Virus record (IMG/VR): IMGVR_UViG_3300045988_146126
Length of the DNA stretch: 43,696 nucleotides
Direction: 5' to 3' (one strand)
From: a virus
How positions within the stretch are numbered: the stretch's first letter is position 1; every line of letters begins with the position of its first letter. The notes beneath the pieces are model-generated. The model did not search any database and had not been told where the DNA came from. It worked only from the letters and a program-made list of their open reading frames with translations. This document shows, one piece after another, positions 20,303-30,768 of this stretch. A program made the position numbers and the translations under genes.

Positions 20303-20737
20303 ATGAAGATTAATTGGAAAGTACGAGTATTAAGCGTCAAATTCTGGCTGGCATTAGTGCCGGCAGCTTTGTTGGTTGTACAAACAGTGGCAGCGGTTTT
20401 CGGTTACAACTGGGATTTTGCCAACTTGGGCAAGGAGCTCACCGCAGTGATCAATGCAGTATTTGCACTGTTGACCATTGTGGGGGTTGCCGTTGACCCA
20501 ACCACAGAGGGCGTCAGCGACAGCCAACAGGCGTTAGCTTACCCGGCACTCATTACCACCAAGGCAGCTAAGATCAAGGCGCTAGAGGATCAGATTAAGG
20601 CACTGCAAGCGGATAAAGAGACCGATCAGGCAGCTTTAGAAGCTGCCAGGTCTGCGGCTCCCGCTGTCGCTCCGGCATCTTCAGCAGCACCAGAACCAGC
20701 ATCTGCAGCACCAGCAGCTAGTCAGGAGGCAAAATAA
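20303..20737 (+). CDS. Holin (phi-LC3/LL-H-like)
   Basis: SD GAAAGGAA lies 8 nt before ATG 20303. It has the MKINWKVR...FWLALVPAALLVVQ signature, two TM segments and an Ala/Pro-rich tail. Confidence 0.75.
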   Translation: MKINWKVRVLSVKFWLALVPAALLVVQTVAAVFGYNWDFANLGKELTAVINAVFALLTIVGVAVDPTTEGVSDSQQALAYPALITTKAAKIKALEDQIKALQADKETDQAALEAARSAAPAVAPASSAAPEPASAAPAASQEAK

Positions 20738-21858
20738 TGGTCTTACATGGTATTGATGTTGCATCTTATCAGCAGGGCATTGGCATTAGCGGCATGACCG
20801 CGGATTTCGTCATTGCAAAGGCAACCGAAGGGACAACCTATTTGAATCCGGCTTTTGCCGATCAGGTCAAGCAGACGTTGACATCAGGCAAGTTGCTTGG
20901 CGTCTATCACTTTGCAAGCGTTGGTAATGCACGGGATCAGGCCGCTTACTTTTTGAGCCAAGTCGGTGCATATGTTGGAAAGGCTGTCTTAGTGCTTGAC
21001 TTCGAAGGGCCAGCAGTAAGTCAGGGCGTTGGCTGGGCGAAGCAGTGGCTGGATTACGTCAAAGCTAAGACCGGTGTGGCACCGATGATCTACATGGGTC
21101 TTTCGGACGAAAACCGTCTTGATTGGTCAAGTGTTGCTAGCACGTATGGCTTGTGGGTTGCCCAGTACAACAATTACAATGCGGTTAATGGCTATCAGCC
21201 TCGCGATATGTATGGCAGTACACGGAACTGGCCAGATCCTGCTATTTTCCAGTACACTTCCGTGGGCAGATTGTCTGGCTGGGCTGGCAACCTTGATCTC
21301 AATGTATTCTACGGCGATCGTGCAGCATGGGCTGCTTATGCTGGTCAGGGTGCCAGCTCTCTGCCAACACCACCAGCTCCGCAACTGTCTGTTAAAAAGG
21401 TAAACGTAAGCTACGGTCTGCATGTACTCGGTGGCGGGTGGCTTGATGAAGTCACTAACTTTGGCGCTGGTGACAACGGGTTTGCTGGATTGCCAAATCA
21501 TCAGCATGATCTGCTGTACATCAAAGTTGATCATGGTAGCGTTAAGTATCGCGTTCACACAGTCAAGAGTGGTTGGCTGCCTTGGGTAACCAAAGGCAAT
21601 CGCAACGATACGGTCAACGGCTGTGCCGGTATTGCTGGTGAAGCGATTGATGGAGTTCAGATCATCTTTCTTACTCCTGCTGGTGAGTCGTACCAGCAAG
21701 CGTATTACCGCAGTCAGACGACACAACGGGCTGGCTGGCTCGGCGTTGTATGTGATGATGGCACGAGTTTGCCACAGTACACAGACACATACGCCGGCAT
21801 GTTTGGAGAACCGCTTGATCGTTTGCAAATCAGCATTAGTTCGATCAATCCGTTTTAA
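20737..21858 (+). CDS. Endolysin, GH25 muramidase with a C-terminal cell-wall-binding region
   Basis: The N-terminus HGIDVASYQ...DFVIAKATEGTTYLNP...GVYHF is the GH25 signature. ATG overlaps the holin stop. Confidence 0.9.
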   Translation: MVLHGIDVASYQQGIGISGMTADFVIAKATEGTTYLNPAFADQVKQTLTSGKLLGVYHFASVGNARDQAAYFLSQVGAYVGKAVLVLDFEGPAVSQGVGWAKQWLDYVKAKTGVAPMIYMGLSDENRLDWSSVASTYGLWVAQYNNYNAVNGYQPRDMYGSTRNWPDPAIFQYTSVGRLSGWAGNLDLNVFYGDRAAWAAYAGQGASSLPTPPAPQLSVKKVNVSYGLHVLGGGWLDEVTNFGAGDNGFAGLPNHQHDLLYIKVDHGSVKYRVHTVKSGWLPWVTKGNRNDTVNGCAGIAGEAIDGVQIIFLTPAGESYQQAYYRSQTTQRAGWLGVVCDDGTSLPQYTDTYAGMFGEPLDRLQISISSINPF

Positions 21859-21872
21859 GTACATTACAAAAA

Positions 21873-21909
21873 GTCCTCTGCTCGCTAACGCGGGTGGAGG
21901 GCTTTTTTT
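21873..21909 (+). terminator. Intrinsic terminator ending the late operon
   Basis: An 11-bp stem CCTCTGCTCGC / GCGGGTGGAGG (with G-U pairs), loop taac, followed by T7. Confidence 0.75.
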
Positions 21910-21922
21910 ACGCTCACAAAAG

Positions 21923-21951
21923 TTGACAAATAAGTAGAAAAGAGGCAATAT
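21923..21951 (+). promoter_or_regulatory. Putative sigma-70-type promoter of the post-lysin cassette
   Basis: TTGACA (21923-21928), 17-nt spacer, CAATAT (21946-21951). Confidence 0.45.
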
Positions 21952-21998
21952 GTTTACGTACACCGGTGCATGTAAACGAACGATCATGGAGGACTGTT

Positions 21999-22655
21999 AT
22001 GGATACGTTATTGTCATCCTACTTGAAGAAAACACTAGATTCCCGCATTCCGGGTTTTTTTGCTGCAGGTGTGAAACGGGGATATAGTTTAAGCGACGAA
22101 TTGAAATCTCGAGAGTCCATTTTGCAACTGTTTGAAGCCCAGAATGCTTATGGTATGCTTAGACACGTTTGTGTTGATATTGCCATTCAGAATGAAGCAA
22201 AAAGATTAGGGCTTGGCATTACCGTCGAACAAAAGCGCGTTTCAAAAAATGGATATACATATCCTGTACTATTTAATGATAACGCAGTTTTTACTCTGCA
22301 TAAGACACGCTCAAAAAAAGCAATGCCAACGAGTGCTTGGAATCGAAAAAATAGAAGTTTTCTCAATAGAGAAATTTCACTATTTGATGATTTTGATAAG
22401 CCTTATTCAGAAGAAAAAAGCGTTCCATATCTGATGGTGACGTACGGCGGCTTGAATTATAAGCTGAGCTATGTTCAAATTGGGTTACCGAATGTAGGCG
22501 CAACTCGGTGGATAGATACAGTCGATATTTCAAATGCGCTTGCAACTGTTAAACCACTTGATGTTGGTGGTAGGAAAAAGCTTAAGTTGGCGTTTAATGA
22601 TCGCGTAGAACAAATGTTAGAAGGGGAGAAGACAAATGACGGAGGCCAAGTTTAA
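21999..22655 (+). CDS. Unknown protein (218 aa), first gene of the post-lysin cassette
   Basis: SD GGAGG lies 6 nt before ATG 21999. It overlaps the next gene by 20 nt. I recognise no motif. Confidence 0.65.
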   Translation: MDTLLSSYLKKTLDSRIPGFFAAGVKRGYSLSDELKSRESILQLFEAQNAYGMLRHVCVDIAIQNEAKRLGLGITVEQKRVSKNGYTYPVLFNDNAVFTLHKTRSKKAMPTSAWNRKNRSFLNREISLFDDFDKPYSEEKSVPYLMVTYGGLNYKLSYVQIGLPNVGATRWIDTVDISNALATVKPLDVGGRKKLKLAFNDRVEQMLEGEKTNDGGQV

Positions 22656-23763
22656 TCCCGGTCAGTTGAAGAAAGCCAGACTTATGCGTGGATATACTAT
22701 GGCAGATTTAGCTAATATGACATCTGTTTCACGCCAGTCAATCAGCAAATATGAAATGGGTAATTCCACGCCGAGAGGGGAAAACTTATTTAAACTTGCA
22801 TCGGCGCTTAAGTTTCCTATTTCTTTTTTTTCAAAGCCGAATTCTGAAGTTCCAATGGGAGCGGTTTTCTTCAGAAGCCAAGCAGCTAGTACAAATAAAC
22901 TTAGAAATATGCAGACGATTCGGTTAGATTTTGCGGCAGAGATTGTTGGTTATATTTCTAGGTTTATTAAGCTGCCAAAATTGAACATACCAACTCCGCT
23001 AGAAAAACCCGTGGCTGCCATTACGGAAGAGGACATTAGGCAGATGGCAAACTCGCTTCGGACGTTATGGGCGTTAGGTAATGGGCCAATTAGTGATTTG
23101 ACCAATGCTATGGAAGCAAATGGGATAGTGGTTGCAGAAACTTCAATGCACAGTAATAAGATGGATGCTGTGTCTACTTGGGCAAATGGTCGACCACTCG
23201 TTGCACTAACTGATAATGATGAGTCCGCTGCGCGGAGAAGGTTTAACCTTGCTCATGAATTGGGACATATTTTGCTTCACTCGGCGGTCGAAAATATATT
23301 TGAGCTAGATAGTACTAAATATAAAAAAGGGCTTGAAAGGCAGGCTCATTTCTTTGCATCAAGTTTGTTGCTTCCTGACGAGAGCTTCAGTGACTTCCTA
23401 TTGTCAACCGATATCAGCGGATTTTTGGAAGCCAAGAAGTATTGGAACGTATCACTGTCGGCTCTAATTTTTAAGGCAAATACACTCCATTTATTAAATG
23501 AAAATCAATATTTGTACCTTCAAAAAAAGATTTCACGTAATCACTGGAGAAAAACCGAACCATTTGATGATCAACAAGTAAAAGAACATCCAGAGATTTT
23601 CAAATCTGCTTTAATGATGCTTTTAGAAGCAGGTATTATATCTAAAAGTCAAATTATTAGTGATTTAGGTTTTCCTGAGGAAGAATTGGAAGCTATCTTG
23701 GGAGTTAGCTTCAAAAATTCAGGAAAGATTTCAAAGAAACCAGTATTGAAAATCCTGAAATAA
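22636..23763 (+). CDS. XRE-type HTH fused to an ImmA/IrrE (M78, COG2856) Zn-peptidase domain
   Basis: The N-terminal HTH is LKKARLMRGYTMADLANMTSVSRQSISKYEMG. The central motif is FNLAHELGHILLH (HExxH), followed by the usual helical C-terminal region. Confidence 0.8.
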   Translation: MTEAKFNPGQLKKARLMRGYTMADLANMTSVSRQSISKYEMGNSTPRGENLFKLASALKFPISFFSKPNSEVPMGAVFFRSQAASTNKLRNMQTIRLDFAAEIVGYISRFIKLPKLNIPTPLEKPVAAITEEDIRQMANSLRTLWALGNGPISDLTNAMEANGIVVAETSMHSNKMDAVSTWANGRPLVALTDNDESAARRRFNLAHELGHILLHSAVENIFELDSTKYKKGLERQAHFFASSLLLPDESFSDFLLSTDISGFLEAKKYWNVSLSALIFKANTLHLLNENQYLYLQKKISRNHWRKTEPFDDQQVKEHPEIFKSALMMLLEAGIISKSQIISDLGFPEEELEAILGVSFKNSGKISKKPVLKILK

Positions 23764-24010
23764 TACCTTGAGGACTTTTTGAAGCGCCATTTTCACAATA
23801 TTATGGTACAAATGAGGAGGAAGAAACCTGTCCATTCCATTTGAAAAAGCCGACTTTGACTTTGCATCTGTTTATGCGAATGAGCAGTGTGCAAACAAAA
23901 CCACCAAGAAGGTTCCGGCATGGCAAGTTAAAAAAGATATCGATAACTTATCAAAAAACGACTAAATTAAAACAGCGGTTACTTTGCTCGCATCTGTTTA
24001 ATATTAAATA

Positions 24011-24046
24011 AGCCTCCTACCAGCAATGGCGGGAGGCTTATTTTTG
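24011..24046 (+). terminator. Intrinsic terminator
   Basis: AGCCTCC ... GGAGGCT stem followed by TATTTTTG. Confidence 0.7.
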
Positions 24047-24108
24047 TGCATAGAGTTGACAGAATCGCCACAAAAAGGCAAAAGGTTTACATACGCCGGC
24101 TTAGGTAA

Positions 24109-24141
24109 CTCTACTCGCTTACACGGGTGGAGGGCTTATTT
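24109..24141 (+). terminator. Terminator-like hairpin, paralogous to the lysin terminator
   Basis: CTCTACTCG / CGGGTGGAG stem followed by GGCTTATTTG. The arms are nearly identical to 21875-21900. Confidence 0.5.
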
Positions 24142-24171: not shown

Positions 24172-24192
24172 CGTGGTGAAGTTATGGTGAAG
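24172..24192 (+). repeat. 21-nt direct repeat, copy 1 (candidate integrase arm-type site)
   Basis: CGTGGTGAAGTTATGGTGAAG, with an internal GGTGAAG doublet. It matches 24436-24456 at 20 of 21 positions. Confidence 0.4.
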
Positions 24193-24405
24193 TGAATCCG
24201 AAATTGTGAAACCTAAGAAATTGATATATAGCTATTTTTGCTTTTATACCGGCGATTTGAAACCCTATGAAATCAGTGTTCAAGCAAATCACAACAAGAA
24301 GAACATGTTCGCACTGCTTGGTCGTCCGGGTTATGAGGATATGACTAAGGAATTGAATGCGCGCCTTTAATCGCAAGGGTTTGCGCGATTTGAAATAAGG
24401 TAAAT

Positions 24406-24493
24406 AAAGAGCTCCAGAATCGTGTTGTAAAAGTCCGTGGTGAAGTTTTGGTGAAGGCTTCGGACTTATACACAGGTTCTGGAGCTCTTTTTG
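24406..24493. terminator. Bidirectional terminator / nested inverted repeat downstream of int
   Basis: A 14-bp perfect inverted repeat AAAGAGCTCCAGAA (24406-24419) / TTCTGGAGCTCTTT (24477-24490) encloses a 7-bp inverted repeat AAGTCCG / CGGACTT. T-runs lie on both sides. Confidence 0.6.
24436..24456 (+). repeat. 21-nt direct repeat, copy 2 (candidate integrase arm-type site)
   Basis: CGTGGTGAAGTTTTGGTGAAG. It lies in the loop of the int terminator hairpin. Confidence 0.4.
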
Positions 24494-24496
24494 TGT

Positions 24497-25681
24497 TCAC
24501 TGATTTAGGTATTTTTCGAATTGCTGATGATTTTCTTTCTTTTTGGCGGGAGAGATCTCTGCATATATTTGTGTAGTTGAAATATCTTTGTGACCGAGGT
24601 CGTCTTTGATGTCATCTAGGCTTAATCCTGCTTCGCGCATCAGAACAGCGTGGGTATGCCGTAAATCGTGAATGCGTATATGAGGAAGTTTAGCTCGTTT
24701 GGTGATGCGATTAAAAGCGCCAGTTGTTGCCCGAGATCGGAGCGGTTGTCCAAACTTGGCATCAGACGAATAGGTGAAGACGAATTCGTTATTGTGGTTA
24801 GTAGCAAATCTAAAACCGGAGATATTGCCTACGTTGAAATGGCGTTCATATTGCAGTTGAAGTAAGCGAGCAACACGCTCGGTCATATACTCGGTTCGAA
24901 CAGAACTGGCAGTCTTAGGTCGATCTAGTGCGATCTTTCCCTTGTTTACGCCAGTCTCGGCACGATAAATTCGTGTAGCGTTGACGGTCAAGGTATTCTT
25001 AGTGAAGTCGATGTCCGACCAACGAAGTGCCATTGCTTCGCCAACACGAAGTCCGCAGTCAATGAGCGTGACGAAGAATGGCAGCCACATTGGTTCTTTG
25101 TCTGATTCAGCCGCATCAATAAACATACTGACTTGGTCTTTTGTCCAAAAGTGCAGTTTCTTTGAGGAATCTTTTGCATAAGCGTTGAATTCCACACCAA
25201 CTGTGGGGTTCTTTTCAAGGTAGCCAATAGCAACGGCTTTTTTTAACGCGTTGTGCAACGTTCCGTTGATGAGTTTTACAGTGTTAAGAGACAAGCCATC
25301 ATTGAATAGGCTGCTGATGAACTCCTGATGTTCCTTAAGAGTGTATTTGGCTAGTCGAATATCCCCAATTTTTGGGATGATGTATTTCTTAAGATTATAT
25401 CGATAGATAATCATGGATCCCTCTTTGACATTAACCTTAAGCTTAGTGATCCACTGATTAAGATAATCAGCCATTAAAATTCTTTCAGTTTGGTAGTGAG
25501 AGTGGCCTTTGATTATTTCGGCCTCGGCTAAAGTTGCTTCTTGCTGGGCTATTTTTTCGGTTGGAAAACCGCGCCGATGAATTTTTATTTCTTTTCCTGT
25601 CTGAGGATCAACACCAGCGAATATATAGAATTCCCATGCCTTTTTGCCATCTTTTAGTTTATATGAGCTAATTGATGCCAT
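24497..25681 (-). CDS. int: Tyrosine site-specific integrase
   Basis: A 394-aa ORF. It has an SAM-like N-terminal domain and the catalytic motifs GLRVGEAMALRW, HDLRHTHAVLM and GHKDISTTQIYAE (R..HxxR..Y). Confidence 0.95.
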   Translation of the reverse strand: MASISSYKLKDGKKAWEFYIFAGVDPQTGKEIKIHRRGFPTEKIAQQEATLAEAEIIKGHSHYQTERILMADYLNQWITKLKVNVKEGSMIIYRYNLKKYIIPKIGDIRLAKYTLKEHQEFISSLFNDGLSLNTVKLINGTLHNALKKAVAIGYLEKNPTVGVEFNAYAKDSSKKLHFWTKDQVSMFIDAAESDKEPMWLPFFVTLIDCGLRVGEAMALRWSDIDFTKNTLTVNATRIYRAETGVNKGKIALDRPKTASSVRTEYMTERVARLLQLQYERHFNVGNISGFRFATNHNNEFVFTYSSDAKFGQPLRSRATTGAFNRITKRAKLPHIRIHDLRHTHAVLMREAGLSLDDIKDDLGHKDISTTQIYAEISPAKKKENHQQFEKYLNQ

Positions 25682-25851: not shown

Positions 25852-26058
25852 ATGATGAAGGCTTTCAAAATCCAAGACGCGGTTAAACTTTATTCGTCGC
25901 TTAAAAAAACTTACGAACGTGAAGACTCTAAAATTCAGAAAATGCAAGAAGAGATTGATCGTGAAATGAAGAAAGCTTCTCTGACCACCAAACCAAGTGC
26001 GGAACACCAAGGACCTAAACGACATTTAAAAATACATAGAGATAGGCCGAATTCTTAA
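25852..26058 (+). CDS. Possible small charged protein (68 aa)
   Basis: ATG 25852 follows AAAGGTGGTGG. It is Lys/Glu-rich. It overlaps the 3' end of the convergent gene by 33 nt, so support is weak. Confidence 0.3.
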   Translation: MMKAFKIQDAVKLYSSLKKTYEREDSKIQKMQEEIDREMKKASLTTKPSAEHQGPKRHLKIHRDRPNS

Positions 26059-27027
26059 AGAATCCTCTTTTTGTGAAATGCCAAAGTTAGTCAATGCGAT
26101 TGATGACAAGTAACTTGCAATCGCACCAATATCACGGGGTGCCAATTGAGAATTTGTAAGAGTTTGGTGTTTCCAATTTGTATTATCTGATTTGTTTTCC
26201 ACGATTCCCATTATATAAAGGGTTCGTGGATTTTTTTGTAGCATTTGAAGTTGTGATGGGCTTAATCTAAAAAAAGACTTTTGTGCAAAAACAACGGTTT
26301 GCTCAGTGGAAACAATGACACTATTCGGCATACTTTTTGAAAAGAAGTTCACCATTGCATAAACACTTCTAAAATTCTCTTGCGAGCTTTTGTCCTCTGT
26401 TATCTTTTGTTCTGCTTTTTGGATTTTCTTCTTCATGTCATCTATTTGCATTTTCGCGTTGCTGGCATTCCTTGTCCTTGCTTGGATAACTCTCAGCTGT
26501 TTGTTGTAACCATCTAACTTTTCTTCTGAAACATTATCTGTAGACAATCTCAGCACTGGATCAATAATTTCAGGGTTGGTACCGGCTTCAAGAGAATCGA
26601 AGTCGTATAAGGAAAAGCTATCTTTGTAAAGTACCAAGTCTCCTGGTTCCGCATTCTCAACAGGAACAAATTGTTTTTTTAGATAGCCTTCAAGGATCTC
26701 GACCCCGTAATCACCGTATACTATATTCTCTGAATACTGATGCCTATTATGTGTTGAACTTTCGTCTGCCATAGAGTGGCTATCTTCGGCCGATCCTGAA
26801 CTATTTGCTATCCCTGGGACTCCGCCGCTAATTTTTGCGGATTTTCTTCCACCTTTAGTTGCGACCTGAGTCAGTATGGAGGTTTTCTCATTCATACGCG
26901 TAGTCAGGGTGCTCAAGCCTTCGTCAAACTGGGCTAATAAGGAATTCATTAAGTCGGTGTCAACATAGATATACTCTCTCAGTTTCTTTTCGGCTTCAGC
27001 CTCATCATGCAGATTATGGTCTTCCAT
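26026..27027 (-). CDS. Unknown protein (333 aa), last gene of the int-proximal leftward operon
   Basis: SD GAAGGAG lies 6 nt before ATG 27027; the track start at 27042 is a TTG inside the SD. I recognise no domain. The N-terminus is EYIYVDTDLMNSLLAQFDEGL, followed by a Gly/Ser-rich linker. Confidence 0.7.
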   Translation of the reverse strand: MEDHNLHDEAEAEKKLREYIYVDTDLMNSLLAQFDEGLSTLTTRMNEKTSILTQVATKGGRKSAKISGGVPGIANSSGSAEDSHSMADESSTHNRHQYSENIVYGDYGVEILEGYLKKQFVPVENAEPGDLVLYKDSFSLYDFDSLEAGTNPEIIDPVLRLSTDNVSEEKLDGYNKQLRVIQARTRNASNAKMQIDDMKKKIQKAEQKITEDKSSQENFRSVYAMVNFFSKSMPNSVIVSTEQTVVFAQKSFFRLSPSQLQMLQKNPRTLYIMGIVENKSDNTNWKHQTLTNSQLAPRDIGAIASYLSSIALTNFGISQKEDSLRIRPISMYF

Positions 27028-27137
27028 TTTATTCTCCTTCAAATAGTTTAATTTTTAGTTTTGCTTCATCGCCCACGCAGCCTTCCGCGGAAGGCTATTT
27101 CTTTGTCTGAAAACTAGCCCCCCTTTATGAAGTCGTA

Positions 27138-27364: not shown

Positions 27365-27790
27365 TTAGATTTCGTTTAGCTTGCTGAACTCGATGTCATT
27401 GTTGTATCTGATCTTGACGGTTAGTGGGTTGCAACGGATGATGACGGGTCGATCATACTGTAACGATTTTTGAAAAGAATTGAGGCTTTCCGTAAAGCTT
27501 GGTATGGCCTCTTCAGCGGTCAATACAACGGCCTTTGCACGCAATAGCAACGATGAGTGGTGTAGCTCATTGAAGCAGTAAACAGCCACCACAGGCTTCT
27601 CTAGGACGTTTTGAATGGTAGTAGTGTCGCGATCAGTGTAAAAAAGGATTTCTTTCAGCGATCGGTGTGATTTAAGTGGTGTTAGCGAAACTATATTAGG
27701 AAAACCGGTATCGGTATCAAGCGTAGCTACCTGCATAACGGTACACTCTCTTAACAGTATATCGGCCTGCCTGATCGTAGAATTTGCCAT
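27365..27790 (-). CDS. Pyridoxamine-5'-phosphate-oxidase-like (FMN-binding split-barrel) protein, tentative
   Basis: SD TAGGAG lies 8 nt before ATG 27790; the track ORF extends upstream without support. The pattern CTVMQVATLDTDTGFPNIVSL....ILFYTDRDTTTIQNVLEKPVVAVY resembles the PNPOx/general-stress-26 fold. Confidence 0.45.
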   Translation of the reverse strand: MANSTIRQADILLRECTVMQVATLDTDTGFPNIVSLTPLKSHRSLKEILFYTDRDTTTIQNVLEKPVVAVYCFNELHHSSLLLRAKAVVLTAEEAIPSFTESLNSFQKSLQYDRPVIIRCNPLTVKIRYNNDIEFSKLNEI

Positions 27791-27870
27791 AAGTAATACT
27801 CCTATCTTAACTATTAATTTGATACGAGTAGCTATGTTTTTAACCGTTGATGGTGAATCAAATTCATTTT

Positions 27871-27879
27871 TGCTATAAT
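27871..27879 (+). promoter_or_regulatory. Extended -10 promoter (TGcTATAAT)
   Basis: TGCTATAAT is read directly. It is divergent from the leftward operon and lies 45 nt upstream of ATG 27924. Confidence 0.5.
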
Positions 27880-27923
27880 TAGATGAATATTGTTCATTAG
27901 CGACTAGAAGGGCAGTGACTAAA

Positions 27924-28091
27924 ATGGAAAATCGTGTTGAGATAAAAGAAGGACATGTTTTTGTAAATGGAACCGAAATTAACCTGGTCAATGATATACA
28001 GCTTCATCCTGCGCTGAACGACACAACGCAAGTTCAACTGAGTTTTAAAGCTACGAGCCTGGATGTAGTTTATCCCGGATCTCGGCGGTGA
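27924..28091 (+). CDS. Possible small protein (55 aa; not in the ORF track)
   Basis: An ATG ORF downstream of the extended -10 promoter. The SD is weak (GAAGGG, 11-nt spacer). Confidence 0.35.
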   Translation: MENRVEIKEGHVFVNGTEINLVNDIQLHPALNDTTQVQLSFKATSLDVVYPGSRR

Positions 28092-30017: not shown

Positions 30018-30449
30018 TTAATTAATGTAAAATTCCTTTATTGCTTCTAAAGCAGTGTCTTCCATTGGCGTAGGAATGTCAAAAGCTTCCATAAATTGAT
30101 TTAGATTAGCATCTTCTTTATCAATATCAGCAAAGTATAAGGGAACGAGAATCTGAATTCCTCCTATGTTAGCTTCACCCTCAATGCTGTTCTTTGACGC
30201 CGAATAAAAGTATAAGCAAGCTGGGTCTTGATGTAGAACGTGCATTATTTCGTGCGCAGCCTGATAAGGCAATTGTTTCGGCTTATGCCAGTTCATGTTA
30301 ATCGCAATCCAACGTGTTTCAGGATTAGAAACTGACGGAGTGTACGGCTTCAGCTGATATGTCAGCTCAGCCCCAACTCCACGGTCAAATCCGTAGTTTA
30401 AAACCTCTCTCAGCATGTCACTAGTAAAATCAGTCATCATGTTTGCCAC
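30018..30449 (-). CDS. ImmA/IrrE-type Zn-metalloprotease (anti-repressor protease)
   Basis: The motif is AAHEIMHVLH (HExxH). It overlaps the 3' end of the repressor gene by 20 nt, the same arrangement as ImmR-ImmA pairs. Confidence 0.75.
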   Translation of the reverse strand: MANMMTDFTSDMLREVLNYGFDRGVGAELTYQLKPYTPSVSNPETRWIAINMNWHKPKQLPYQAAHEIMHVLHQDPACLYFYSASKNSIEGEANIGGIQILVPLYFADIDKEDANLNQFMEAFDIPTPMEDTALEAIKEFYIN

Positions 30450-30768
30450 CTCGAAGAAGTCTCTTGATTATCTCAAGATCTTCAGGCGGAATGGGGCGAC
30501 CTTCAAAAGTCATGATGGTGTCATTTTTTGAATCTGATATGTCAATTTGCTCCGGCTTTGAGCGAACATCAGTAACCCCAAGCAAAAAGTCGGTAGAAAC
30601 ATTAAAGTAACTGGCTAGTTTCTTAATAGAATCTTGGTCAGGAGTTCTTTCGTTCTTTTCATATAAAGAAACAGACGCTTTGCTGACATTTATAATTTTT
30701 CCGACATCAGATTGGGTCATCTTCTTTTCGTTCCTAAGTTCTTTTAGTCTTTCTCCGAAGCTCATCAT
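30430..30768 (-). CDS. CI-like XRE-family repressor (112 aa, no S24 autocleavage domain)
   Basis: The HTH is FGERLKELRNEKKMTQSDVGKIINVSKASVSLYEKNERTP. It is divergent from the cro-like gene across a 133-bp operator region. Confidence 0.85.
   Translation of the reverse strand: MMSFGERLKELRNEKKMTQSDVGKIINVSKASVSLYEKNERTPDQDSIKKLASYFNVSTDFLLGVTDVRSKPEQIDISDSKNDTIMTFEGRPIPPEDLEIIKRLLRGGKHDD

Follow-up and report, generated by a model that had tools for sequence, protein, structure and literature searches.

What are the two genes that separate the lysin gene from the attachment site of this temperate phage, how did they come to lie there, and is the first of them a new kind of effector? The window, i.e. 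the entire 43,696-nt stretch of viral DNA that was analysed, corresponds to Lacticaseibacillus phage R24.2 (99.9% identity), all genes of which are annotated as 'hypothetical' in its record. The final late gene encodes a GH25 endolysin (20737–21858, plus strand; Pfam Glyco_hydro_25, 3.1e-33). It is followed on the same strand by rmrT (21999–22655, 218 codons) and rmrA (22636–23763, 375 codons). Further downstream are the attP recombination core (24294–24333), located by homology to the annotated attP of phiFSW (misc_feature, L024 954–993), and, on the minus strand, the gene of a tyrosine integrase (24497–25681; Pfam Phage_integrase, 3e-27, plus SAM-like and arm-binding domains). The pair lies just outside the late operon, between two strong terminators; after integration it occupies the outermost right-hand position in the prophage, adjoining attR. 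The GC content of the cassette is 38.8%, against 50.6% in the lysin gene and 44.5% in the whole window. Rfam searches of the window and of the non-coding cargo of L021 gave no match.

The original prediction described an independent two-gene unit at the lysin–attP hotspot, and this description holds, as do both reading frames and their 20-nt overlap, which couples the two genes translationally. Judging by the comparisons below, the pair is best classed as an ordinary, previously unannotated copy of RosmerTA, with a toxin that is not of a new type. The reading we favour, and consider quite probable, is that a temperate Lacticaseibacillus phage of the R24.2 type carries RosmerTA here as a 'moron' cassette expressed in the lysogen.

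Boundaries and transfer of the cassette

The left border is formed by hairpin A (21868–21911, plus strand), the intrinsic terminator of the lysin gene and the late operon (hairpin 21868–21908: ΔG −26.6 kcal/mol, z −6.4). This hairpin is a linker sequence common to phages of the L. casei group; it also occurs 3' of the lysin gene in A2, LJ and L021 and 5' of attP in iLp84. The putative promoter P1 (21921–21951, plus strand) consists of the −35 box TTGACA (21923–21928), a 17-nt spacer and the −10 box CAATAT (21946–21951). Both elements and the spacing are thus present as had been proposed, but the −10 box fits TATAAT at only three of six positions and a consensus promoter scan made no call. In spite of the weak −10 box, P1 is supported by conservation of the same architecture, GTTGACA-N13-AAARAGGYAA-hexamer, upstream of six diverged cassettes whose RmrT proteins are 33–62% identical to that of the window.

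Immediately downstream of P1, overlapping the expected transcription start, lies O1 (21952–21977, plus strand), a 26-nt imperfect palindrome GTTTACGTACACCGGTGCATGTAAAC with 22 of 26 positions self-complementary. Inverted repeats with ACRT/AYGT arms are found at the equivalent position in five of the six cassettes. O1 is a candidate operator at which the HTH domain of RmrA may exert autorepression.

The 15-nt repeat GTTTACRTACRCCGG occurs at 21952–21966 and 24085–24099, and its palindromic partner on the minus strand at 21963–21977. These three matches compare with 0.09 expected, and three were reached in none of 100 shuffles. The duplication exceeds 15 nt: the full promoter–operator module, AGTTGACA-N-AAAGGCAA-N3-GTTTAC..GTAA[A]C, is present at 21921–21977 and again at 24054–24110. 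The second copy, P2/O2 (24054–24110, plus strand), aligns with P1/O1 and retains TTGACA (24056–24061), the hexamer CAAAAG (24079–24084) and a degenerate palindrome (24085–24110; 18 of 26 positions self-complementary). The final base of its hexamer is G, versus T in all six gene-bearing cassettes. P2/O2 is also seen in R9.1, L018, L020 and L021, all lacking Rosmer genes; it is probably a dead relic that belongs to the attP/int module. It is followed by hairpin A' (24109–24141, plus strand), which was called by the terminator scan and closely resembles the lysin terminator (29 of 33 positions identical to 21876–21908; ΔG −16.4, z −4.0). The same hairpin is located at the same place in iLp84, phiFSW and R9.1, and directly 5' of attP in iLp84-type phages.

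The right end of the mobile cassette is formed by another terminator, hairpin B (24006–24049, plus strand; hairpin 24006–24043: ΔG −23.6, z −5.2), which starts 240 nt past the rmrA stop codon. Phage A2 has the same hairpin, annotated there as the terminator of int, and LJ and R9.1 also carry it. The window, L027 and L028 diverge immediately past ...TTTTTGTGCA. The 240-nt spacer between rmrA and hairpin B (23764–24005, plus strand) travels with the cassette and differs by no more than one substitution in L027 and L028. It holds a 46-codon frame (23825–23965) after GAGGAGG that lacks ATG, GTG and TTG starts and is no confirmed gene. Neither the spacer nor the frame showed similarity to anything in 50,697 phage records except R24.2, and the cassette of GG6-2 is devoid of the spacer.

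An identical cassette (about 21909–24049) was observed directly 3' of the lysin gene in several prophage backbones and at several integration sites. The identical RmrT is listed both for 457 blocks of the assembly collection and for 247 contigs. In each of the eight places that were examined, its gene directly follows that of the lysin, which is either GH25 or Amidase_2. Downstream, these places show no fewer than three distinct host flanks and, in one case, an integrase. The syntenic phages iLp84, PLE3, phiFSW and R9.1 lack the unit.

The original prediction had given correct positions for both terminators, for the 33-nt copy of the hairpin and for the 15-nt repeat. It had, however, taken the repeats for brackets of the mobile unit, and this interpretation does not stand. 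In other prophages the identical cassette stops at hairpin B, without the right-hand copies, and the right-hand promoter–operator module together with hairpin A' (24054–24141) occurs in R9.1 and in IMG/VR prophages without Rosmer genes. The repeats were therefore rejected as target-site or insertion flanks. As the right-hand copies are separable from the cassette, the repeats are better explained as a record of modular recombination than as the flanks of one insertion. These comparisons document how the cassette travels: the unit from promoter to terminator is evidently exchanged as a whole among phage backbones, through recombination at the conserved terminator hairpins that they share at the lysin–attP junction, and the exchange leaves orphan promoter relics.

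RmrA and the role of the pair in the lysogen

The 375-aa product of rmrA contains an XRE-HTH domain (aa 11–64; Pfam HTH_3, 2.5e-14), an M78/ImmA Zn-peptidase domain (aa 160–280; Peptidase_M78, 4.6e-20) and a C-terminal region. It is matched by 14 PADLOC RmrA models, of which PDLC03947 (7.3e-110) aligns over residues 3–358 of 375 and model positions 8–364 of 383; here and below, PADLOC matches are profile E-values and bit scores, not system calls under the PADLOC per-model thresholds. The match to phrog_2439 has an E-value of 2.5e-101. The HELGH motif at 207–211 is intact, H207, E208 and H211 being invariant in six homologues, and the recognition helix SRQSISKYE is conserved. The nearest solved relatives are the ICEBs1 ImmR HTH and CapP, with CapP 7t5t the closest to the peptidase part (1.5e-9); PDB entry 9vzy, a 393-aa HTH protein, also matches the peptidase region. 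Weaker matches were obtained to the PADLOC models capP (2.3e-18) and capH (2.5e-7).

The proposal that the HTH/M78 fusion corresponds to the antitoxin of RosmerTA is thus borne out by the full-length profile match, and the literature agrees with it. RosmerTA as originally described likewise consists of two co-oriented genes, toxin first, with an antitoxin that combines XRE-HTH and M78 with HExxH and a toxin devoid of annotated domains (Millman et al. 2022). What sets the present copy apart is its location, the lysin–attP junction of a temperate phage of Lacticaseibacillus, and its divergent RmrT.

The domains of RmrA are also those of ImmR/ImmA (ICEBs1), IrrE/DdrO (Deinococcus) and the CBASS regulators CapH/CapP, in which an XRE-HTH repressor is cleaved by an M78 metallopeptidase on a DNA-damage or ssDNA signal. 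There, repressor and peptidase are individual proteins and regulate an operon downstream, whereas RmrA unites both domains and the toxin is encoded upstream. By analogy with RosmerTA and with these regulators, RmrT would be toxic, RmrA would neutralise it in the lysogen, and the HTH domain of RmrA would repress its own promoter at the palindrome over the transcription start. A signal linked to infection or DNA damage may then activate or inactivate RmrA, possibly via peptidase-dependent cleavage. The released RmrT would stop the cell and abort the superinfecting phage, and this abortive response would protect the lysogen population and hence the prophage.

Toxin–antitoxin modules also serve as addiction modules, and the pair might mainly stabilise the prophage or its right end by post-segregational killing, with no meaningful anti-phage role. 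In RosmerTA, a validated defence system, an rmrA deletion was not obtainable and rmrA was essential in Tn-seq screens, so the system is intrinsically addictive; the position of the cassette at the prophage edge, adjoining attR, agrees with such a role. Rosmer systems in S. thermophilus provided narrow-spectrum defence, and against most of the phages in the test two RosmerTA homologues of this species proved inefficient. This poor protection also favours addiction and implies that defence may be narrow or absent in the present case as well. Nevertheless, several RosmerTA systems do protect against phages. One of them, encoded by Gordonia phage Kita, defends against coliphages (Ernits et al. 2023, PMC10440598) and resembles the system of the window in being phage-borne and in having an ImmA-type antitoxin. 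Addiction and defence are not mutually exclusive. We regard a mainly addictive role as unlikely.

Much less probable is that the HTH/M78 protein controls the choice between lysis and lysogeny as a repressor/anti-repressor of the ImmR/ImmA type, the 218-aa protein being an accessory regulator. The domain composition and the nearest solved structures would suit this function. However, the phage already has a lysogeny module with a split XRE repressor (30430–30768) and a small M78-like protein (30018–30449), and the cassette is separated from this module by attP and is missing in the four syntenic phages named above. Moreover, several backbones carry the same cassette, among them one whose repressor is of the Peptidase_S24 type; it is RmrA that gives the full-length match, and its RmrT partner is obligate.

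Under the preferred reading, a RosmerTA cassette expressed from the prophage, a function is assigned to two 'hypothetical' genes of R24.2 and to hundreds of prophage copies in L. paracasei and L. rhamnosus. Both are dairy and probiotic species, and superinfection defence by their prophages affects how well starter and probiotic strains withstand phages.

The RmrT family

The 218-aa product of rmrT starts with ATG and is preceded by the ribosome-binding site GGAGGA (21988–21993). Its best PADLOC match is to the RmrT model PDLC03933 (1e-17, 62.5 bits; protein residues 6–184, model positions 7–180 of 212), which spans about 82% of both the model and the protein. Four more RmrT models (PDLC03940, 03938, 03934 and 03937) match it. 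The family comprises 159 clusters at 50% identity (E ≤ 1e-3), and PDLC03933 is matched by all 81 sampled members, at best with 1e-85. The protein of the window belongs to a divergent Lactobacillales branch, with 62.5 bits to the best model and at most 62% identity to the closest homologues beyond its own 90% cluster. A scan for the close subfamily in species-representative genomes and IMG/VR returned only the window's own sequence, and a word-index search for homologues, made with a profile of 30 sequences, yielded only 11 proteins.

The same family regularly accompanies RmrA. Among the 35 full-length RmrA loci that were examined, from Lactobacillus, Streptococcus, Enterococcus, Lactococcus, clostridia and cyanobacteria, 33 have a member of this RmrT family as the overlapping upstream gene, and the overlapping arrangement also occurs in five diverged cassettes on contigs.

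These data decide against the idea of the original prediction that a known antitoxin scaffold is joined here to a new, unrelated effector. Its premise, an upstream partner without a recognisable domain, holds insofar as searches of Pfam, NCBIfam and PDB by sequence or profile gave nothing, the only PHROGs match was marginal (phrog_35814, of unknown function, E 9.4e-4), and the AF2 model had no significant Foldseek match in PDB or BFVD. It fails against the five RmrT models and the regular pairing with RmrA, and at the level of family membership the idea is accordingly refuted; we give it next to no credence.

RmrT is predicted to be a soluble protein (pI 9.4) without a transmembrane segment (maximum KD19 0.66). 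In this it differs from the membrane-depolarising toxin RmrT(D5) of phage Kita, which has a predicted TM region. The AF2 model (pLDDT 90.5) is a globular alpha/beta fold, and P110, R116, T148, G150, P164 and W171 are nearly invariant in the family. The best Foldseek E-value was 4.7e-3 (TM 0.15–0.3), and the weak top matches are enriched for PD-(D/E)xK folds. Assignment to PD-(D/E)xK nucleases was rejected, as no structural match was significant and the D...(D/E)xK catalytic motif is absent; strands 87–92 and 97–102 have no conserved acidic residues.

A motif in RmrT that resembles clamp-binding motifs

The most conserved surface-loop motif of the RmrT family was identified from column frequencies in 81 sequences, with statistics computed against shuffles. 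Its consensus is N-x-Q-[LI]-[SD]-L-F, and in the window it reads NREISLF (residues 123–129; codons at 22365–22385, plus strand). It lies in a coil just past helix 114–124, where pLDDT drops to 72 and then to 60. The consensus resembles the canonical beta-clamp-binding motifs QL[SD]LF and QLxLx[LF], and exact QLSLF, QLSLPL and QLSLGL variants are present among family members. In the Lacticaseibacillus branch the key Q of the motif is replaced by E, which makes the case for clamp binding weaker for the RmrT of the window.

Our best guess at the activity of the family, made with low confidence, is interference with DNA replication via the sliding clamp. Docking onto the clamp DnaN as the way in which this main RmrT family might poison replication is a tentative idea, rather unlikely on balance. 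Were it true, the clamp would be a common target for Rosmer toxins of diverse kinds, reached by convergence, and the prophage would protect its host by halting the replisome on which incoming phages depend. The motif is the sole point of wider interest at this locus; it opens the mechanism of the commonest RmrT family to direct tests.

RipA (Spr1630), a Rosmer toxin of S. pneumoniae, acts on the motif-binding pocket of DnaN according to genetics and two-hybrid data (PMC12795458). We recovered the sequences of RipA and RipB from the published primers and a metagenome scan. RipA begins with MLNQDLFD and matches the RmrT model PDLC03931 at 1.6e-80. Its comparison with the RmrT family of the window by hhalign gave E 0.14 and a probability of 0.4%, and BLASTP was not significant. 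RipA thus represents a different RmrT family, and transfer of the DnaN target by homology was rejected.

The antitoxins of the two systems are closer to each other. RipB (Spr1629) is 29% identical to the RmrA of the window over the full length (E 5e-41), and the NCBIfam spr1629-family model (NF052239) aligns with this RmrA end to end. Assignment to the spr1629/RipB equivalog was rejected at 221.9 bits, below the cut-off of 335 bits, and loci of the window's type in the S. mitis group, which scored only 243 bits, are no spr1629 orthologues either. Both RipA and the RmrT family of the window have a motif of the N-Q-x-(x)-L-F type, and the ripA and ripB genes, unlike the pair described here, do not overlap.

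Identity and organization of the gene pair

The two-gene cassette is situated between a GH25 endolysin gene (20737–21858) and a tyrosine integrase gene (24497–25681, minus strand), in a region 99.9% identical to Lacticaseibacillus phage R24.2 (OP869850), a phage obtained by induction of L. rhamnosus LMG 23327. All CDS of R24.2 are annotated as 'hypothetical protein', and the paper describing this phage mentions neither defence nor toxins. The NCBI names are 'hypothetical protein' for RmrT, the 218-aa product of the first gene, and 'helix-turn-helix domain-containing protein / ImmA/IrrE family metallo-endopeptidase' for RmrA, the 375-aa product of the second. What is added here is the annotation, the cassette boundaries with relics of an orphan promoter, and a clamp-binding-like motif as a concrete experiment.

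RmrA contains the Pfam domains HTH_3 (residues 11–64) and Peptidase_M78 (residues 160–280, HELGH at 207–211). It matched 14 RmrA models from PADLOC, the best one (7e-110) across residues 3–358. RmrT had no sequence match in Pfam, NCBIfam or PDB; five PADLOC RmrT models were matched, the best being PDLC03933 (1e-17, approximately 82% of both the protein and the model covered). An exhaustive profile search at E ≤ 1e-3 yielded 159 clusters of RmrT relatives (50% identity), nearly all 200–230 aa long, and PDLC03933 was matched by all 81 sampled relatives (best E 1e-85). Given these matches, the parallel with RosmerTA drawn in the original prediction was right, and its suggestion of a possibly new effector does not hold at the family level. 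The pair is an unannotated but typical RosmerTA on a well-behaved moron cassette at the lysin–attP hotspot.

[quoted passage not shown] RmrT toxins are diverse, and the phage-encoded RosmerTA of Gordonia phage Kita protects against coliphages (PMC10440598). In S. thermophilus, the Rosmer systems tested had narrow spectra. The Kita RmrT is a membrane toxin (PMC10440598), whereas RmrT from the window, a basic protein (pI 9.4), lacks any hydrophobic segment, which sets it apart.

The pairing was surveyed in 35 loci of species-representative genomes encoding a full-length RmrA relative (34–64% identity), including Lactobacillus, Levilactobacillus, Streptococcus mitis/oralis/sanguinis, Enterococcus, Lactococcus, clostridia, cyanobacteria and Desulfobaccales. 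At 33 of these loci, rmrA is overlapped or abutted at its 5'-end by an ORF of the window's RmrT family (E down to 1e-65). The same arrangement was found in five diverged cassettes on contigs. The RmrT–RmrA pairing is obligate.

Both genes are on the plus strand: rmrT (21999–22655) has an ATG start with the RBS GGAGGA 5 nt upstream, and rmrA (22636–23763) overlaps it by 20 nt. The lysin terminator, hairpin A (21868–21908), is very stable (−26.6 kcal/mol, z −6.4). The unit is ended by a second strong terminator, hairpin B (24006–24043; −23.6 kcal/mol, z −5.2), 240 nt beyond the rmrA stop; a copy of hairpin A, A', recurs at 24109–24141 with 29 of 33 positions identical. Copies of the 15-mer GTTTACRTACRCCGG start at 21952 and 24085, with a palindromic partner at 21963–21977 (three matches observed vs 0.09 expected; none of 100 shuffles reached three). 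The ORFs, their overlap, the terminators, the hairpin copy and the 15-mer were thus all found where originally predicted. For the predicted promoter this applies to the perfect −35 box and the 17-nt spacer; the −10 box, CAATAT, fits only three of six consensus positions, and the promoter was not called by the promoter scan tool. The GC content is 38.8% in the cassette vs 50.6% in the lysin gene. The rmrT and rmrA genes form a self-contained, translationally coupled operon outside the late operon, with a conserved promoter.

Cassette mobility and the orphan promoter-operator

The exact RmrT sequence is listed for 457 assembly-collection blocks and 247 contigs. Eight places were examined, and in every one the cassette lies immediately 3' of a phage lysin gene (GH25 or Amidase_2), at the right-hand end of the integrated prophage. 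Downstream of it come at least three different host flanks and, in one place, an integrase, as in the window. Two prophages with an identical cassette (L027, L028) retain the order hairpin A, promoter-operator P1/O1 (21921–21977), rmrT, rmrA, 240-nt spacer, hairpin B. Since these sequences and the window become unrelated directly after ...GGCTTATTTTTGTGCA, the mobile unit is mapped by comparison to approximately 21909–24049. Related phages carry other cargo between the same hairpins: a 74-aa ORF in iLp84 and R9.1, ORF19 in phage A2, and three genes in phage LJ.

The spacer (23764–24005) moves along with the cassette and has no relatives among the phage records; it contains a 46-codon frame (23825–23965) behind a GAGGAGG box, without an ATG, GTG or TTG start. 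The GG6-2 cassette has no such spacer.

The right-hand promoter-operator copy P2/O2 and hairpin A' (together 24054–24141) are also present in R9.1 and three IMG/VR prophages (L018, L020, L021), all without Rosmer genes, and for this reason are assigned, on comparative grounds, to the attP/int module. Nine copies, when aligned, share the module GTTGACA-N13-AAARAGGYAA-hexamer with an inverted repeat after it; all six gene-bearing cassettes have it upstream, among them that of an Enterococcus phage with RmrT only 33% identical. Three orphan copies have the hexamer CAAAAG, with G at the critical last −10 position, where all six gene-bearing copies have T. We read the orphan as a probable decayed promoter-operator left by an earlier, related cassette. 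The repeats claimed in the original prediction do exist, but not as duplicated flanks of a single insertion, as the right-hand copy is found in phages without Rosmer genes; with the orphan read as a relic, they are a record of modular recombination.

The orphan module lies directly 5' of a terminator hairpin in the window (24054–24141) and in L016 (2400–2480), L018 (~280–365), L020 (11018–11070) and L021 (9517–9570). Possible interpretations are a dead relic, a decoy operator and the origin of a ~50-nt transcript. In L021 (9560–9825) and L020 (11060–11320) it is followed by ~240 nt of non-coding cargo with the long-range pairing GGAGTTGGCAAG/CTTGCCAACTCC and its own terminator; this cargo had no Rfam match (E ≤ 1) and a folding z of only −1.5.

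The attP core (24294–24333) was placed by homology to the annotated phiFSW site. The core is flanked by direct repeats CGTGGTGAAGTTWTGGTGAAG (24172–24192 and 24436–24456), probably integrase arm sites, and spanned by a 54-codon ORF (24206–24370) that looks like the duplicated 3'-end of the host gene used for phage integration.

RmrT fold and the sliding-clamp lead

The AF2 model of RmrT is confident (pLDDT 90.5, pTM 0.86) and comprises three N-terminal helices, a six-stranded alpha/beta core and a C-terminal helix. Near-invariant positions in the family are P110, R116, T148, G150, P164 and W171. Among the top Foldseek hits, which are weak, with TM scores of just 0.15–0.3, PD-(D/E)xK nucleases are over-represented. 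As the model has no significant neighbour in PDB or BFVD and the family lacks conserved acidic catalytic residues, RmrT is not called a nuclease.

[quoted passage not shown] The RipA and RipB sequences were recovered via the published primers (PMC12795458) and a metagenome scan. RipB is 29% identical to RmrA from the window, which aligns end-to-end with the NCBIfam spr1629-family model at 222 bits, below the 335-bit cut-off. RipA matches another RmrT model, PDLC03931 (1.6e-80), and shows no detectable relationship to the window's RmrT family; hence transfer of the DnaN target by homology was rejected.

The loop segment best conserved in the window's family reads N-x-Q-[LI]-[SD]-L-F (in 81 sequences, N 69, Q 57, [LI] 57, F 53). 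In RmrT it corresponds to residues 123–129 (codons at 22365–22385), in the coil directly past helix 114–124, where pLDDT falls. Clamp-binding motifs are reportedly QL[SD]LF and QLxLx[LF] (Dalrymple et al. 2001), and the loop motif resembles them. At the aligned site the strict motif occurs in 7 of the 81 sequences and a relaxed penta- or hexapeptide in 37, vs 0.07 and 11, respectively, anywhere in shuffled proteins, these counts not being independent because the 81 sequences are related. The window's own branch has NREISLF, E replacing Q as in 8 of 81 sequences. The RipA paper mentions no clamp-binding motif of this kind (PMC12795458); the N-terminus of RipA itself reads MLNQDLFD. Clamp targeting by RmrT is a testable hypothesis, which we consider rather doubtful.

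Proposed regulation and neighboring accessory genes

The putative operator O1 is a 26-nt palindrome (22 of 26 positions self-complementary) overlapping the site where transcription is expected to start. In five of six cassettes it is matched by inverted repeats with ACRT/AYGT arms, and the RmrA recognition helix SRQSISKYE is conserved; these features fit a possible autorepressor role for RmrA like that in type II TA systems. The closest match of the RmrA peptidase domain is CapP (1.5e-9), IrrE being also matched, and its HTH matches the ICEBs1 repressor ImmR. In ImmR/ImmA, IrrE/DdrO and CapH/CapP the protease cuts the HTH partner upon a damage or ssDNA signal (PMC10440598; partly established knowledge). 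By analogy, RmrA may be inactivated by a similar signal, which would free RmrT and abort the infection. PDB entry 9vzy_A, a 393-aa 'HTH cro/C1-type domain-containing protein' for which no associated paper was found in the literature, matches the RmrA peptidase region (E 1.8e-4) and may be an RmrA-like fusion.

That the cassette is instead the lysogeny switch of the phage is argued against by the lysogeny module (30018–30768, minus strand), which already has its own split pair, a 112-aa XRE-HTH repressor and a 143-aa M78-like peptidase (Pfam 4.4e-4, below the cut-off). RmrA carries the same pair of domains as a fusion, which makes cross-talk between the two conceivable.

Downstream of int, on the same strand, is a gene for a 338-aa DUF6414 protein (26026–27042, minus strand; phrog_16607, 2.8e-142) with no PADLOC match. 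This position is a frequent place for morons or superinfection-exclusion genes. The lysogeny-side accessory region also encodes a PNPOx_N-like domain protein (27365–27991, minus strand), whose iLp84 counterpart is annotated as pyridoxamine 5'-phosphate oxidase.
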